From an uncultured Nitrospira sp. (lineage in GTDB: Bacteria > Nitrospirota > Nitrospiria > SBBL01 > JAADHI01), in the NCBI GenBank assembly GCA_964451325.1, contig CAYVHO010000004.1:22254-86253 (forward strand): a stretch of DNA of 64,000 nt, written 5' to 3'. Position numbers and translations under genes: made by a program. This document shows, one piece after another, positions 2,820 to 19,282 of this stretch (the first letter of the stretch is position 1; each line of letters begins with the position of its first letter). The notes beneath the pieces were generated by a model. It had not been told where the DNA came from and ran no database searches. It saw only the letters and a program-made list of their open reading frames with translations.

Positions 2820-3482
2820 CTAATAACTCTCCGGTTGATGTCGAACGATGCTGCCTTCCACCATGTAAATTACCACTTCTGCAATGTTCGTTGCATAGTC
2901 GGCAATGCGTTCAAGATGTCTTGAAACCGAGAGACAATGGCTGAGCGCTTCAACGTGATGGGGGGTAAGACGAATTTCCTCGTAAAATAAAATGTAAATT
3001 TCTCGATTAATGTTGTCCACTTCATCATCGTCGGCACAGACCTGGTACGCAATTTCAGGGTCTTGCTGAATCAGTGAGTCCAGGGCCCGCTTTAACATTG
3101 AACGCGTCTTTGTTGTCATTTCTTCAAAATCAAAAGGGGTTGTCATCGAACTTTCCCGGCATAAATAAAGCGCGCGTTCTGCGATGTTGACGGAGAGGTC
3201 GGCGATGCGCTCCAAATCGTTGTTGATCTTGAGTACGGCGACTAAAAAGCGAAGATCAATCGCCACCGGCTGATGCAGGGCCATAATCTTGAGACAGTCT
3301 TCTTCGACTTCCACTTCGATGGCATCAATGGTGTCATCATATGCGATGACTTCGACGGCCAATTGTTCATTTCTGTCAGAGAACGCCCGGATCGATTTTT
3401 CAAGCGTGCCCTCCACGAGGGCGCTTAATGACAATAGTTTCTTCTTTAATTTTTCCAGTTCATTTTGTAGATGTAAGGCCAT
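2820..3482 (-). CDS. phoU: Phosphate signalling complex protein PhoU.
   Basis: 220 aa with two PhoU repeats (..ERIADxxxNIAE..). Immediately downstream of pstB in the pst operon. Confidence 0.9.
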   Translation of the reverse strand: MALHLQNELEKLKKKLLSLSALVEGTLEKSIRAFSDRNEQLAVEVIAYDDTIDAIEVEVEEDCLKIMALHQPVAIDLRFLVAVLKINNDLERIADLSVNIAERALYLCRESSMTTPFDFEEMTTKTRSMLKRALDSLIQQDPEIAYQVCADDDEVDNINREIYILFYEEIRLTPHHVEALSHCLSVSRHLERIADYATNIAEVVIYMVEGSIVRHQPESY

Positions 3483-6970: not shown

Positions 6971-7092
6971 TTCAGTTTCTCCCTGTTGGATCAAAACAAG
7001 CTTACAATGCCTGTCTTTGAGAATGATGAGAACATTGTGAGGATTGGGTTAGGATTGCGGGGGATGGTTTTTTAAATACTTAATACTTAAAG

Positions 7093-7815: not shown

Positions 7816-7967
7816 TTTTGTATTCCTCCAATTTATCTTGTTTTAAAATCCGTTTTTATTAACGGCAAGACAAACTTACGATAGTGATTTTGGGGAATAA
7901 TGAGGGGATGATGAGAACTTGATTAGAGTGTAAAGAAGTGTCTTATCGAATTCAGGAAGAAGGTGGC

Positions 7968-8243
7968 TTATCGATTTTCCCGCGTATGCCAAATACGCAG
8001 AATGTAAAGATTCGACTGCTGTATTTCGTAACGCAGTTCATAACGACCGATGAGTAGACGGCGAACGTCACGCGGTTCAAATTCTTCAAGTTTTTCGCCA
8101 ATACGAGGTTGTTTGATGAGTAGAGTAGGTGATGTGACAAGAGATTGTACCGTCTGCGCAGCCGCTTTTCTATTGATTGGAGCTAAAAATTCGTACAACC
8201 GGGCCAAATCCGACAGGGCTTTTCTCGTCCATTTCAGTTTCAT
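7968..8243 (-). CDS. Type II toxin of the RelE/ParE family.
   Basis: 91 aa. The 4-nt ATGA overlap with the upstream small RHH gene gives the classic antitoxin-toxin order. Sequence pattern consistent with ParE-like plasmid-stabilisation toxins. Confidence 0.7.
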   Translation of the reverse strand: MKLKWTRKALSDLARLYEFLAPINRKAAAQTVQSLVTSPTLLIKQPRIGEKLEEFEPRDVRRLLIGRYELRYEIQQSNLYILRIWHTRENR

Positions 8244-8500
8244 TTCTTTGGAAGCGGCAAGGGCTGATCGGTATCAAGGCTATCCGCCCAGGCTTGAACA
8301 GCCTGGTGATCAATTACAGCATCATCAACCTCTGCAAGTGCCTCTAAAGTGAGTCGTCTGCGTTCTTCCTCCTGTTCTACCCAGGCGCTGAGCGCTTGTT
8401 TTACGATCCAAGCCCGTGAACGTTCTAGCCGAGAGGCTATCTGATCGACTTTTTCCGCAAGAGAGAGAGGAACATGAGCCGTAATGACTTTGTTATCCAT
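8240..8500 (-). CDS. Type II antitoxin with a ribbon-helix-helix (CopG/ParD-like) fold.
   Basis: 86 aa with an N-terminal RHH-like segment (VITAHVPLSLAEKVDQIASRLERSRAWIVKQAL) and an acidic C-terminus; translationally coupled to the toxin. Confidence 0.7.
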   Translation of the reverse strand: MDNKVITAHVPLSLAEKVDQIASRLERSRAWIVKQALSAWVEQEEERRRLTLEALAEVDDAVIDHQAVQAWADSLDTDQPLPLPKK

Positions 8501-8824
8501 GGAGTACCTCTTTTTATTTTCAGTCTAAATGAATCATAGTGATTTAGATTGATTGAGTCAATGCCGCTTCCCTAGAATTTTGTGGAATTCGATTTGAAAG
8601 ACTGTACAAATAAGAAAAATTCAAAAACCACGAGTACAGGAAGACAGGGAGCGGCATTGACGACATCTACAACTAAACAGCTTTATTGATGAGATATTTT
8701 GAGAAATACGAGGAGGAACAGAGAATAGGGGAAACAGTACCGTCCCAGTTCTAGTAAGATCATTTTTTATAGACTTCAGTCAAATACTCAGGCTTGCAAA
8801 CCAAAATATTTGCTGCATCTCGCC

Positions 8825-9565
8825 TTAGCCAGAGGTTGGACTCCAACCGTCAATCACGGTTGGAAGTTTGGTGGCTTTTCCACCCTCGGATATGCGTATT
8901 GAACTAGAACTTTGTTGCAGCTGGTGAGCAATATATATGGAGTCAATAATGGGGCTAACCAGAATAGATTTGCCCAAAACATGAATCCTTTGTTCGGCAG
9001 ACATTAGATTTAGCGAGGATGCATGATAGGAGTCCCCAGAATCAAGTACCAAAAATCCTTGAGGCATGAGTTCTCTGCATACACTGTGGACAATTCGTGT
9101 ATTGTTTTTAGAGACTTCACAGTGAAAATCTAGAAAATTTAAATGGTGAGATTCTTCGTGCGTGTCAATTACCTCAGAACAGAGACTCACGTTGAGAGTG
9201 TTTCCCTCGGTAACTTTCACGAGGATATCTGATTCCAGATCTCGTCTATAGTAATCAATGGACTGCCCCTGGCCTTGGTGAAAAAATGTCGCTTTCAACA
9301 ATGCAGCGGTACACTCCCCACTCTTCATGCAGGCGGAAAAAATCGCTTCCCAGAAGGGAACCTTCGTGGCCTTTCGAATTGAAAGAGCCTGCTCGATAAT
9401 CGTTTTTTCGAATTCCTTGATCTCAATGCGTTCTTGAAGAAGTGGAGGTGACGTGTACCTGAAGATGGTGCATCTCTCTATATTCTGATGCGCAAGAATA
9501 AGCGTCCGATACGCCAGCGAGGCTGGCTTTCCAATAAGCTCATCTATTTCAGACTGTCTCAGCAT
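8825..9565 (-). CDS. Uncharacterised protein of about 246 aa, encoded immediately downstream of the patatin-like gene and overlapping it. Putative partner in a two-gene module.
   Basis: The listed ORF (8825-9694) overlaps the upstream gene by 115 nt. The internal Met (MLRQSEIDEL...) gives a roughly 14-nt overlap typical of operonic coupling. No recognisable motif. Confidence 0.45.
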   Translation of the reverse strand: MLRQSEIDELIGKPASLAYRTLILAHQNIERCTIFRYTSPPLLQERIEIKEFEKTIIEQALSIRKATKVPFWEAIFSACMKSGECTAALLKATFFHQGQGQSIDYYRRDLESDILVKVTEGNTLNVSLCSEVIDTHEESHHLNFLDFHCEVSKNNTRIVHSVCRELMPQGFLVLDSGDSYHASSLNLMSAEQRIHVLGKSILVSPIIDSIYIAHQLQQSSSSIRISEGGKATKLPTVIDGWSPTSG

Positions 9566-9578
9566 AAATACAATGCTT

Positions 9579-11543
9579 CTAACTTTCTTGCTTCGTTGGG
9601 CGTACAGCACCTTCGATGGAGCGAAAATTTTCGTAATTAAACTCACTGATACGCTCTTCATGAGGCAACTGATAAGTTGACAACAGAGCTTCACGGGGAT
9701 TAATTGGTCGGCCTGGAAGTGGGTGGTCCGCGATATTATTTACGACCAAACTGTAAAGAGAATCCACTCCCATTCTATTAAGATAAAAAACCCGCGTGTT
9801 TCCCTCTATCACAACCAGATTATTTCCCCACTTTTCCATGACCGGTGGGGTCACAGATGAGACGTATTGTCCATCCGCCATTATCTTCGCTGGCTTACAG
9901 AATGGTATTCCGTATTTTTCGTACAACACTGCTAGATGGGCAATTTGACGATACTTGTAAGAACGAACTCGTCGAACGATCATTTTGACAGCTTGATCGG
10001 TCTCTTGTTTTAGAGACACTTGTTGTATCTCGATCTTGACCTTCGGGTCTCTATATTGATGAACTCCTTGTTTCAGTAAGGATATAAGTTTGTTCGAGTC
10101 GTCCTCTTCCAGAGTTAGCTTAGGTCTGCTGTGCCCGCCAGAACCGAGTAGTTGATCCAGCTGCTTAAGGAGAATCTCGATCATGGGGCGATGTTTCGTT
10201 CCGATATAAACCACACCTCTAGGGGAATACTCTGTTGCACTGATGTCTTGGATAAAGACTGAATTGTGACGATTGTCTTCGTGACTAAGAAGAAAGCAGT
10301 TCAGTGGGATCTGGTCAGTCTCAATAACTTTCGCGCCCATTTTTTTAAGCAGGTCTCTCCGGTGGTTTTCCCGGGTATCACCAGATCCTGACTTTACGAG
10401 AATATCAACTTCAGCACCTGCAAACATCCAGTGGGCGATTGAAGGGAAGAGCCGCCAGTACCATTTTGTACCTGAGCAGGAGACAACAAGGCGTTTCCCT
10501 GGTGTTACCATCTCTCTAACGAGATCATCAAACAGCTCGTCTTCACTATACCGGGCAACATCGGACGCCAATGAATCGTTGAGTTCTGAGTGTTCATTCT
10601 GGATGAAGTCCTTCACAGCAGCGCGTCCAGAATCAAGCAATAATTTAACTTCTTCCGTAGAAATATTGAAATTTATGCTGGATACTGCATCGGTATTGAT
10701 ATTAACTGAACTAATGTTGCTCTGCATCTTGATCTGCAGATCCGTCGCTCCGCTGATGATTGTGTCAATCAAACGATGCACTAGCCAACTTAGTGTCCAC
10801 TCAGTTTTCGGTTCTTGATGCTCTACAAGACGAAAAGCGAGAATACGGCCACCAAGTGCCGGTGAATTGTTTCCCTGATCATCAAACACGAACGATGGAA
10901 GATTACTTAGCATTCCGCCATCGACAAAGAAATCATTTCCAGATTCCACTGGCTCAAAAAAGAGGGGAATCGAGCAAGAGCTGCGAACGGCCATTGCAAC
11001 TTTTGCATCGGGTGTGTCTTTCGTACTCCAAATCTTAGGACGTCGACCAGCAAGGTCAGTTGCAATTACCCACGTCGGAAGAATTAGATCACTAAACTTA
11101 ATGGGACGTGGTTTATTTGGAAGTAATTCGGAAAGAAGATCATCCAGCCAATCCTCCAATTTCTCAGATGAGTACGCCGAACCGTTTTTTAGAATTTTCC
11201 CAAAAAGTTCATTCTTCCCTTTAAAAAAAAGGCTCCCGGCGCGACCCCACCAAAATGTCGAAATACGTTTCTTGGGTTCTGCCAGCAGTGTGCTAAATTT
11301 AAGATATGCGCATTTCTCGTAGAGAAATTTCTCGTTTGCGCCAGCTCCAACAAGAACAGCGATAATGGATCCTGCAGATGTACCAGCAACTTCGGAAAAA
11401 TTAACACCGCACTTAATGGCAGCTTCGTAGGCTCCGATGTGACCCGCCCCGCGACAGCCCCCTCCCTCGAATACACCACGACAGGCCTGAAAAAACTTTG
11501 TTTGTGGGTACTGCTCTACAGCTGCATTGTCATTTACATGCAT
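9579..11543 (-). CDS. Patatin-like phospholipase domain protein with a large uncharacterised C-terminal region of about 430 aa.
   Basis: N-terminus has the oxyanion-hole GGGCRG, the catalytic nucleophile GTSAG (GxSxG) and the catalytic-Asp DGG (FFVDGGMLSNLP) motifs in the canonical patatin order and spacing. The C-terminal 430 aa are unrecognised. The distal segment (..NLVVIEGNTRVFYLNRMG..) loosely resembles a ParB/Srx-like core. Confidence 0.8.
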   Translation of the reverse strand: MHVNDNAAVEQYPQTKFFQACRGVFEGGGCRGAGHIGAYEAAIKCGVNFSEVAGTSAGSIIAVLVGAGANEKFLYEKCAYLKFSTLLAEPKKRISTFWWGRAGSLFFKGKNELFGKILKNGSAYSSEKLEDWLDDLLSELLPNKPRPIKFSDLILPTWVIATDLAGRRPKIWSTKDTPDAKVAMAVRSSCSIPLFFEPVESGNDFFVDGGMLSNLPSFVFDDQGNNSPALGGRILAFRLVEHQEPKTEWTLSWLVHRLIDTIISGATDLQIKMQSNISSVNINTDAVSSINFNISTEEVKLLLDSGRAAVKDFIQNEHSELNDSLASDVARYSEDELFDDLVREMVTPGKRLVVSCSGTKWYWRLFPSIAHWMFAGAEVDILVKSGSGDTRENHRRDLLKKMGAKVIETDQIPLNCFLLSHEDNRHNSVFIQDISATEYSPRGVVYIGTKHRPMIEILLKQLDQLLGSGGHSRPKLTLEEDDSNKLISLLKQGVHQYRDPKVKIEIQQVSLKQETDQAVKMIVRRVRSYKYRQIAHLAVLYEKYGIPFCKPAKIMADGQYVSSVTPPVMEKWGNNLVVIEGNTRVFYLNRMGVDSLYSLVVNNIADHPLPGRPINPREALLSTYQLPHEERISEFNYENFRSIEGAVRPTKQES

Positions 11544-11679
11544 GGATCAAACTCCACGATTCAAGGCTAATGTGTTTCGTGATGTAAAGAGTATGTAGCC
11601 AGTGCAAATAGAAGAAATTCGTGCCCATCCAGATAAGTCCAACTCCCGACAACAAGTCTAACGGAAAAGAAAAAAAATG

Positions 11680-11716
11680 ATGACGATGTAGAACTGAGAA
11701 TAAAATCTACATCGTT
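11680..11716. promoter_or_regulatory. Hairpin-forming inverted repeat in the AT-rich region upstream of the patatin operon.
   Basis: ACGATGTAGAactgagaataaaaTCTACATCGT: 10-bp arms with a 13-nt loop. Confidence 0.3.
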
Positions 11717-12049
11717 TAGGAATCTTTTTCAATGCGTATTTCTATTCAAAATTAGCGAATACGGATTGAAACATTGGATTAATCAAGGAAAATCAAAAAC
11801 CAACATTTCAGAAAGAAAGACAGGAAAACTGATCAGCCTGCAGAAAATCTATATCAGAGTCCGGCCTTCTCGGAGAAAGAAAGGAAAAAACCTCAAGAGC
11901 CTTTAAGCATGAACAACCCGTTGATGGGGGTTTTCATCCTTAGAGCGGTTTATATGAATATCACTAATCCATTTATGTACATTTTTACAGAAATTAATCT
12001 TTAATCAAGATAAACTTTTCTGAAAGACGAGAAGTGTGATAAATCCAGA

Positions 12050-12240
12050 ATTAGCTCAGTAACTTCCGGTTAGGAAATTGCGCCACATTAGATCCTAATA
12101 AAAAATGTCATTTCGACGAGGAACGAGGAGAAATCTTAATACGGTGTTCTGGTTTTTTGATCCAAAAGGATAAGATTTCTCTCTTCGTTCGAAATGACAG
12201 GGCTATCGCAAATTTGTAGCCGGAAGTTACTGAAATTAGT
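12050..12240. repeat. MITE-like nested inverted-repeat element, copy A.
   Basis: Inner palindrome GTCATTTCGACGAGGAAcGAGGAGAAATCTTAT...ATAAGATTTCTCTCtTCGTTCGAAATGAC plus an outer stem GTAACTTCCGG...CCGGAAGTTAC. A second copy, about 85-90% identical, lies at 18795-18975. Confidence 0.6.
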
Positions 12241-12249
12241 TGGAAAAAA

Positions 12250-14745: not shown

Positions 14746-14956
14746 CTTCCTTATTCTACAATGGCCGATGGTGAAGGCAGCGTCAAAACAGGATACAGTA
14801 TCTTTGTTAGGTTTTTGTGAGAATAGCAAAAAGAAATGAGATCACCATGAAGAGGCCACATTCAGTAAACGTCCTCTTTATCGTCATGATGACAATGGTT
14901 TTTACAGCACAGTTTATGATTTTGAATATGGGCATAAGCCGTAATGGTCGCCCCTA

Positions 14957-18736: not shown

Positions 18737-18794
18737 TCCAATAGAATTGTATCCAAATGAGTAATTCTGTCTTCTGGGCATTAGTCCATTTCAG

Positions 18795-18975
18795 TCACTC
18801 CCGCTTAGGAAATTACCTTACTTTAAATCCGCAGGAAAAGTGTCATTTCGACGAGGAATGAGGAGAAATCTTATGTTGTCTTCTGGCTTTTTAATCCAAA
18901 ATGATAAGATTTCTCTCCTCGTTCGAAATGACAGGGCTACTGCAAATCTGCAAGCGGAAGTTACTGGATTCATCT
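18795..18975. repeat. MITE-like nested inverted-repeat element, copy B.
   Basis: GTCATTTCGACGAGGAAtGAGGAGAAATCTTAT...ATAAGATTTCTCTCcTCGTTCGAAATGAC with a flanking AGTCACTCCCGCTT...AAGCGGAAGTTACT stem. Homologous to 12050-12240. Confidence 0.6.
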
Positions 18976-19282
18976 ACGAGAGGATATTTTTGATATTTCT
19001 TGAGATGTGCAATATGCGAATGATTTCAATTTCCTCGCCGCTTGGCCGGTAGAAGACAAGGTATTTTTTAAATCCCTTAATCGGGAAAAATCGTATATTT
19101 GAGAGCAAGCTATTTTGTGAAGGATAACATTCTCCCATTTTGGCTTGCTCAGATAACATCCGATAGGTCTCTTTTGCTGCATCGTACAGCCTTAATGCCG
19201 CATTGAGATTATCTTTAGCAATATGGAAGGCATGTTCATCTAAATCTTTTTCTGCCTCAATAAGAATCCTATAGGACAGCAT
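18974..19282 (-). CDS. parE: Type II toxin of the ParE/RelE family.
   Basis: 102 aa; stop-start adjacent to the upstream ParD-like gene; ParE-like sequence pattern. Confidence 0.72.
   Translation of the reverse strand: MLSYRILIEAEKDLDEHAFHIAKDNLNAALRLYDAAKETYRMLSEQAKMGECYPSQNSLLSNIRFFPIKGFKKYLVFYRPSGEEIEIIRILHISRNIKNILS

Follow-up and report, generated by a model that had tools for sequence, protein, structure and literature searches.

What does a bacterium gain from joining a phospholipase to a ParB-like domain and setting a primase-like protein beside it? The question is raised by two adjacent minus-strand genes at 8825..11543 of a 64,000-nucleotide stretch of contig CAYVHO010000004.1 from an uncultured Nitrospira sp. 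(assembly GCA_964451325.1), the whole of which we call the window. The first gene of the pair, gene A (9579..11543; an open reading frame (ORF) of 654 aa), encodes a three-domain protein with a patatin domain, an inactive HKD domain and a ParB-CE-like domain, and the second, gene B (8825..9565; an ORF of 246 aa), encodes a protein that matches PF24387 and resembles the archaeo-eukaryotic primase (AEP) fold. A preliminary description of this DNA, made from the letters alone, took the pair for a candidate novel defence system. Using profile searches, structure models and a comparison of homologous loci, we conclude that the locus is most probably a two-gene anti-phage conflict cassette, and that the pair has very probably been described computationally already. 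That it serves defence or conflict in some general sense is likely; the specific mechanism that we favour is put forward with less assurance and is weighed below against its competitors.

Domains of the two proteins

Gene A is preceded by a GGAG about 10 nt 5' of its ATG and ends in a TAG stop codon (9579-9581). Its N-terminal part (aa 24-216; 10896..11474, minus strand) matches the Pfam Patatin family at 3e-28 and contains the GGGCRG oxyanion motif (aa 27-32), the GTSAG motif with the nucleophile Ser56 and the DGG motif with the catalytic Asp208; in an alignment of 79 homologues, G27-29, S56, G58 and D208-G210 are invariant. The oxyanion motif, nucleophile serine, catalytic aspartate and patatin fold that characterize PF01734 are all present, and the complete patatin core announced by the preliminary description is borne out. 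The AlphaFold2 model of the protein (79 homologues) has a predicted local distance difference test score (pLDDT) of 91.5 and a predicted template modelling score (pTM) of 0.91. Searched with Foldseek, it returns CapV and CapE at the top (~1e-14); in a further fold search phospholipase D (PLD)/HKD nucleases come next (Nuc 11.6, NucT 11.3, Zucchini 11.2), and the patatin toxins ExoU, VipD and VpdC are structural relatives as well. The closest solved relatives of the gene A patatin are CapV and CapE, lipases activated by cyclic nucleotides in cyclic-oligonucleotide-based antiphage signalling systems (CBASS). We detected 174 homologues of gene A, mostly full-length at ~640-660 aa and with identities down to 32%.

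The C-terminal two-thirds of the protein, previously listed as matching nothing recognizable apart from a loose ParB/Srx-like stretch, resolve into two domains by profile and fold searches. The first (aa 361-463; 10155..10463, minus strand) matches PF24402, 'iHKD, inactive HKD-REase', at 7.8e-8, above the curated cutoff, and the same family is found in 60 of 69 gene A homologues. The domain has the PLD/Nuc fold, and the catalytic H-x-K-x4-D motif is not found in it (aa 412-452 of an alignment of 69 sequences): the positions equivalent to the catalytic His and Lys are occupied by G/A and hydrophobic residues, with no conserved His/Lys column among the 69 homologues, in agreement with the Pfam name. 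We infer that the iHKD domain is a sensor of a ligand or nucleic acid, or else a scaffold.

The second domain (aa ~476-654; 9582..10118, minus strand) carries the motifs PPVxE (aa 566-570), EGNTR (aa 580-584; nt 9792-9806), LPG and FRxIE, and its invariant residues include P566, E570, G581, R584 and R641. In the AlphaFold2 model, IEGNTR lies at a strand-to-helix junction, where ParB/Srx proteins have their phosphate-binding G-x-x-R motif, and the model predicts a ParB/Srx fold with that motif in its characteristic position. The fold matches 2hwj, a structure listed among ParB-family matches in PMC10164549. The only Pfam family to recur on this domain across relatives is PF24392, 'ParB CE domain', found in 6 of 69 relatives at E<=0.01 (best 6e-5) and, in a separate scan, in 4 of 10 at E 0.01-0.08; gene A of the window itself does not match it even at E<=10, and PDB sequence and profile searches with the domain found nothing. 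It is a divergent relative of the curated ParB-CE family, and the earlier guess of a ParB/Srx-like C-terminus is upheld by the fold, the G-x-x-R-type motif and these weak matches in relatives. Judged by its residues, the domain keeps an EGNTR motif of the type that binds nucleoside triphosphates (NTPs), and it possibly binds or hydrolyses them. The ParB/Srx NTPases known from defence (the ParB domain of GmrSD, DndB, DpdB, SspE) share the strand-to-helix (D/E)G-x-(H/T)-R motif, here IEGNTR, whereas gene A joins the domain to a lipase and has no HNH, DNA-binding helix-turn-helix or other nuclease partner domain. A profile of the C-terminal domain retrieved 484 cluster representatives (50% identity) at E<=1e-10 among 1.84 billion, and the 150 matches listed of these 484 all have the architecture of gene A or are fragments. 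The distribution of the family is patchy.

Gene B begins at the ATG at 9565 and not at the upstream GTG at 9694, as an alignment of 74 homologues indicates, and the size of about 246 aa given earlier for the partner is therefore correct. The protein had been described as lacking any recognizable domain, and this no longer holds: it matches PF24387, 'AEP-like, archaeo-eukaryotic primase 1D-like', at 2.3e-19, above the curated cutoff. Its AlphaFold2 model (pLDDT 95.7) has the AEP catalytic fold, laid out as an N-terminal helical domain of ~120 aa, with conserved PPLLQxR, PFW and H96, followed by the catalytic core. With residues assigned to AEP motifs by order and secondary structure rather than by residue-level superposition, motif I is D146-F-H148, motif II S176-G-D-S179-Y-H181 and motif III D208. 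Across 40 members with identities down to ~20-30% (the lowest at 19-30%), H96, S130, D146, S176, G177, S179, H181, D208, H214 and R224 are invariant, and this conservation of the active site argues for an enzyme. Position 148 of motif I is His in 36 of the 40 members and Asp in one, where the canonical AEP motif reads D-x-D/E. We detected 123 homologues, all of them stand-alone proteins of ~245 aa with PF24387; sequence and profile searches of the PDB found nothing, and PADLOC and NCBIfam gave no match. Taken from its sequence, gene B is a predicted small, stand-alone nucleotidyltransferase of the AEP superfamily with an active site that looks intact. From the AEP primase-polymerases (RepB', PriS, PrimPol and CAPP, the CRISPR-associated Prim-Pol) it differs in several respects: sequence similarity to them is undetectable in PDB searches, motif I reads D-x-H, the protein is only 246 aa long and has no helicase, PriCT or zinc-binding module, and its conserved N-terminal helical domain is distinct.

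Conservation of the pair and exchange of partners

For the most part the two genes travel together. The census of adjacency took one genome per species and covers 14 gene A homologues of full length, drawn from Aminicenantes, Methylacidimicrobium, Flavobacterium, Chitinophagales, Saprospiraceae, Bacteroidales, Prevotella, Acidobacteriia, an alphaproteobacterium, Rubrivivax, Noviherbaspirillum, Rhodocyclaceae and Vulcanimicrobiota. In 10 of the 14 an AEP-like gene adjoins gene A on the same strand, immediately downstream in nine and upstream in one, and these paired genomes belong to Acidobacteriota, Verrucomicrobiota, Bacteroidota and Proteobacteria. The AEP-like gene is also adjacent in all the longer contigs from metagenomes or metagenome-assembled genomes (MAGs) that were inspected (L084, L092, L094, L095, L096), and some 40 gene A and AEP-like matches lie on contigs of equal size in both match tables. 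Same-strand pairing of the two genes recurs across lineages, as the preliminary description required of a true partner. The AEP-like partner is usual, not obligatory: it is missing at 5 of 15 genome or plasmid loci (L005, L007, L011, L013, L097), and a comparison by hhalign of the neighbouring proteins of L005 and L007 with the AEP-like profile was negative (probability <1%). There are no other conserved neighbours, and the flanking genes vary from locus to locus.

Within the window, the stop codon of gene A and the ATG of gene B are separated by a 13-nt spacer on the same strand, with no clear Shine-Dalgarno sequence. Homologous pairs, invariably co-oriented, have junctions anywhere between a 53-nt overlap and a 65-nt gap. 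In the window the genes do not overlap; they are operonic and possibly coupled, a more cautious wording than the translational coupling claimed earlier.

The genes around homologous pairs are rich in known defence functions. In a Nitrospirota MAG (L094), GmrSD, a Schlafen/AlbA_2 protein and a type I HsdR precede the pair, and Fic, a PDDEXK and UvrD pair, RadC and PIN follow it; in L096, Mrr and a complete HsdMSR precede the pair and an AAA_13 ATPase and a helicase follow it. Genes found near other copies of the pair or of its members include GmrSD, Lamassu LmuB (4e-135) with a Cap4 nuclease, AbiEii, AbiLi, HipA-like, PIN/GNAT, an E2/E1/JAB system, an integrase and a transposase. The enrichment of defence genes is qualitative, made without background statistics, and the neighbourhoods, with their type I restriction-modification, GmrSD, Lamassu, Mrr, Abi and toxin-antitoxin genes, give qualitative but consistent support for a gene pair of defence islands. 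The patchy spread across phyla fits horizontal transfer. A search of plasmids returned one record of the family, and in a search of phages the family was not found.

Three individual loci deserve separate mention. The pair stands directly 3' of a type I HsdR gene, on the same strand, in the unrelated contigs L094 (4468-10368) and L096 (1840-10687), and it may be a candidate system that embeds within restriction-modification loci. At L086 (5984-8753) the gene for the patatin-iHKD-ParB protein has fallen apart into five or more ORF fragments beside an intact AEP-like gene; GmrSD and a type I methylase come next. The gene A homologue of L008 was considered as a CBASS effector and rejected as such, the genes upstream of it, for a metallo-beta-lactamase-fold protein and an E2/E1/JAB fusion, being a separate system.

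Both genes also occur in other combinations. One AEP-like clade (P0236 and P0240, mutually 61% identical) has no patatin neighbour and lies immediately upstream of a Dgt-type deoxynucleoside triphosphate (dNTP) triphosphohydrolase, which matches the PDB dNTPase 9p8s at 1e-70; these loci (L082:8001-10157, L083, L087-L089) contain no patatin gene. The AEP-like family is thus shared by two or more different effectors, each with a connection to nucleotides, and the gene A profile finds no match in the paired dNTPases, so that no 'coupling' domain is shared between them. The clade beside the Dgt-type enzyme links the partner family to nucleotide-targeting effectors, its point of resemblance to the anti-phage dGTPases and other dNTP-depleting defences (Dgt-type HD enzymes); the window has no such dNTPase variant, its effector being a lipase with a ParB-like domain.

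Conversely, gene A may be served by a different partner. In a Rubrivivax MAG (L007:7241-8008) and on pA of Kovacikia minuta, a megaplasmid (L097:5183-5992), a protein of ~260 aa encoded immediately upstream of gene A replaces the AEP-like gene. The two proteins are 31% identical (4e-48) and share the motif hGGWxRD, followed after ~12 residues by DIDhV, that is, GG(W)xRD...DIDhV; their only database support is a sub-threshold match to the PolyA_pol head domain (E 0.052), PDB sequence and profile searches having found nothing. We tentatively regard them as putative nucleotidyltransferases of the Pol-beta superfamily. On that reading an unrelated nucleotidyltransferase would have taken the place of the AEP-like one, as expected if the partner makes a nucleotide product. 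A further variant, from a Vulcanimicrobiota MAG (L013:4647-7694; an ORF of 1016 codons from stop to stop, or 982 aa if begun at its first ATG), keeps the patatin and iHKD domains and has its ParB-like part replaced by ~330 residues with a weak GAF match (E 0.007); no AEP-like gene lies nearby. GAF is a small-molecule sensor domain.

Setting of the pair in the window

The window carries the genes in the order phoB-phoR, the pair, a ribbon-helix-helix (RHH)-ParE pair and porin-pstSCAB-phoU. The position between the pst and phoBR genes was given correctly in the preliminary description, which took it for an inserted island; the GC content of the pair (0.444 and 0.452) is no different from the mean of the window (0.446), and composition gives no evidence of recent insertion.

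On the side of gene A lies an AT-rich intergenic region of 706 bp (11544..12249; GC 0.363), AT-rich as had been stated and longer than the 560 bp reported for it, which presumably holds the gene A promoter. The MITE (miniature inverted-repeat transposable element)-like repeat noted there is borne out: the element (12056-12233) measures 177 bp and has inverted termini of 27 nt, and a second copy with 83% identity lies at 18791-18966, directly adjoining a second ParD/ParE pair (ParE ORF 18974-19282). A promoter and terminator scan yielded sites no more numerous than in shuffled controls, and scans of the window against Rfam and for tRNAs gave no match.

On the side of gene B, a minus-strand toxin-antitoxin pair occupies 7968..8500, namely an RHH antitoxin (8240-8500; RHH_1, 3.4e-9) and a ParE toxin (7968-8243; ParE_toxin, 6.2e-17), and these Pfam matches establish the RHH-ParE pair that had been proposed as a neighbour. 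It is missing from the homologous loci examined, and is a separate type II toxin-antitoxin that forms no conserved part of the system. Between it and the stop codon of gene B lies a 324-bp AT-rich spacer (8501-8824; GC 0.373) with a 15-nt inverted repeat (8557-8571/8647-8661) and a sigma-70-like site (8561-8533), a candidate for the toxin-antitoxin promoter or operator, as which it may serve.

The sequence TSTCATCAT occurs four times in the window, at 7023-7031, 7908-7916 and 14886-14894 on the minus strand and at 3332-3340 on the plus strand. Three of the four precede pstS, the porin_5 gene and phoB and point the same way as those genes; the motif is probably the half-site of the Pho box in this organism. 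A copy with one mismatch (CGTCATCAT) is found at 11677-11685, 134 nt 5' of the gene A start codon.

A proposed mechanism and its competitors

CBASS with a patatin effector (a CD-NTase with CapV or CapE) is one of the nearest known systems, and the pair differs from it in several respects. It has no CD-NTase/SMODS gene and neither Cap2 nor Cap3; the cyclase partner of CBASS has the Pol-beta fold, as against the AEP fold of gene B; and CapV is without the ~430 extra residues that form the iHKD and ParB-like domains of gene A. No cyclase is found among the window neighbours of the pair, and the NCBIfam CBASS_lipase model scores gene A at 33.9 bits against a cutoff of 200; membership in CBASS is rejected on these two grounds. 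Pfam and PADLOC scans of the locus detect no cyclase, SMODS or TIR, as had been claimed, nor a SAVED domain. The suggestion that sensing would then reside in the C-terminal extension, the partner or both is reasonable and fits the domains found there.

The pair belongs to a computationally delineated kind and is not an unknown system. Its proteins match PF24402 and PF24387 above the curated cutoffs (the ParB-like domain of gene A in the window gives no match to PF24392), and the preliminary description was reasonable in calling it a candidate and overstated its case in calling it novel, in that the families are curated in Pfam, yet absent from PADLOC v2. The three Pfam accessions that cover or relate to the pair, PF24387, PF24392 and PF24402, neighbour one another, and together with the 'CE' naming they appear to point to the work of Nicastro, Burroughs, Iyer and Aravind (NAR 2023, 51:11479; PMC10681802), the title of which, as cited elsewhere, concerns nucleotide-targeting immune effectors. 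The Pfam names suggest that this work may describe exactly the present pair. Its abstract reportedly speaks of specific versions of the ParB domain and of systems that operate downstream of novel enzymes for the synthesis of signalling nucleotides.

We propose the following model, to which we give a probability of about 45% as a whole. Infection would supply a trigger, for example phage single-stranded DNA or replication intermediates, upon which the AEP-like enzyme would make a nucleotide or short oligonucleotide, possibly on the phage single-stranded DNA itself. The non-catalytic iHKD domain, the ParB-like domain or both would bind this product, and the ParB-like domain may in addition hydrolyse NTPs. 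Binding would release the CapV-like phospholipase, which would destroy the membrane and bring about abortive infection. In its boldest form the model would make the AEP-like enzyme a new class of immune signal synthase, built on a primase fold and not on a CD-NTase, Cas10, TIR or other Pol-beta-fold or palm-domain cyclase, whose messenger is read by the dead HKD and/or ParB-like domain to switch the lipase and which, in the sister clade, switches on the dNTPase; in that form we hold it to be doubtful.

Several points weigh against the proposal. What the analysis shows directly is the identity of the domains, the conserved catalytic residues, the linkage of the two genes and their defence-island surroundings. 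The defence function of the pair is assigned through guilt by association, and this function, the way in which the signal runs and the identity of the ligand are all inferred; ligand binding by the iHKD and ParB-like domains, and whether the partner acts upstream or in parallel, stand at the level of a proposal. The D-x-H form of motif I, in place of D-x-D/E, means that polymerase activity is not assured. Five loci do without the AEP-like gene, and the Pol-beta reading of the protein that replaces it at two of them draws on a motif and a sub-threshold Pfam match. In the window the pair lies inside a Pho-regulon cluster and in no obvious multi-system defence island, with only the ParE/RHH pair adjacent. 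Full-text searches of the literature returned neither a description of a patatin-iHKD-ParB and AEP-like pair nor an experiment on one, and PADLOC v2 has no model for the partner and gives only generic CBASS-lipase matches for gene A.

Pair conservation and defence context speak equally for a defence system in which gene B is not the maker of a signal. The AEP-like protein could sense phage DNA or primer-template junctions directly and activate gene A through protein contact, or act as a second effector that lays down aberrant primers; the sensing of nucleotide pools or DNA would then fall to the ParB-like and iHKD domains of gene A. DNA binding is established for HKD nucleases and ParB proteins; the pTM of 0.91 implies that the three domains form one compact unit, which could be autoinhibited; and the loci with no partner at all suggest that gene A may sense alone. 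What tells against this explanation is the invariance of the AEP catalytic-motif positions down to 19-30% identity, which favours catalysis over mere binding, and the apparent exchange of the AEP-like protein for a nucleotidyltransferase-like one, which points to an enzymatic partner. We regard it as unlikely.

The pair might instead be a toxin-antitoxin or addiction module, or an interbacterial effector-immunity pair, in which the lipase is the toxin and the small partner its neutralizer, with no dedicated anti-phage role. Such a reading would suit a two-gene operon adjoining an RHH-ParE pair, the structural kinship with ExoU, VipD and VpdC, and the locus at which the patatin gene has decayed beside an intact partner. 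Typical antitoxins and immunity proteins, however, do not share the enzyme fold and invariant active site of the partner, whose family also pairs with a dNTPase; no secretion-system genes and no secretion or delivery domains were noted in the loci examined; and a lethal toxin could not be tolerated at the five loci where gene A stands without its AEP-like partner. This reading is improbable.

More improbable still is a housekeeping phospholipase of the Pho regulon that remodels or scavenges membrane phospholipid in phosphate starvation, which would explain the location of the pair between phoR and porin-pstSCAB-phoU and the TSTCATCAT copy before gene A, in line with those upstream of pstS, the porin gene and phoB. 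That copy is imperfect, however, and about 20 other homologous loci examined have no pst or pho neighbours, their contexts being variable and rich in defence genes; the family is distributed patchily across phyla, and lipid remodelling has no use for a primase-like partner or a ParB-like domain. The Pho-cluster position of the window pair looks incidental. That the AEP and ParB components are the remnant of a plasmid or integrative-element replication-partition module, forming no functional unit with the lipase, is scarcely credible, given a ParB-like domain fused to patatin and iHKD in a constant architecture across ~480 clusters (among the matches listed), the lack of an adjacent integrase, replicase, helicase or parA in the window, and the near absence of the family from plasmids (a single record) and its absence from phages.

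The proposed two-gene defence system is readily testable, being compact (two genes, 2.7 kb), clearly delimited and covered by structure predictions of high confidence. The predicted key active-site residues are S56 and D208 of the lipase, D146, H181 and D208 of the AEP-like protein, and E580 and R584 of the ParB-like domain, and the dNTPase sister pairing and the apparent exchange of the AEP-like gene provide natural comparative controls. The value of the finding is tempered by the presence of the family in curated libraries, by its probable prediction in print and by the many candidate systems of this sort. If the model is true, enzymes with a primase fold would be counted with CD-NTases, Cas10 and TIR domains among the sources of immune messengers, and inactive HKD/ParB-like domains would form a novel class of receptor that governs a lipase able to destroy the membrane; should the AEP-like enzyme indeed be a new class of synthase, the family would represent a fourth or fifth independent origin of immunity based on nucleotide second messengers.

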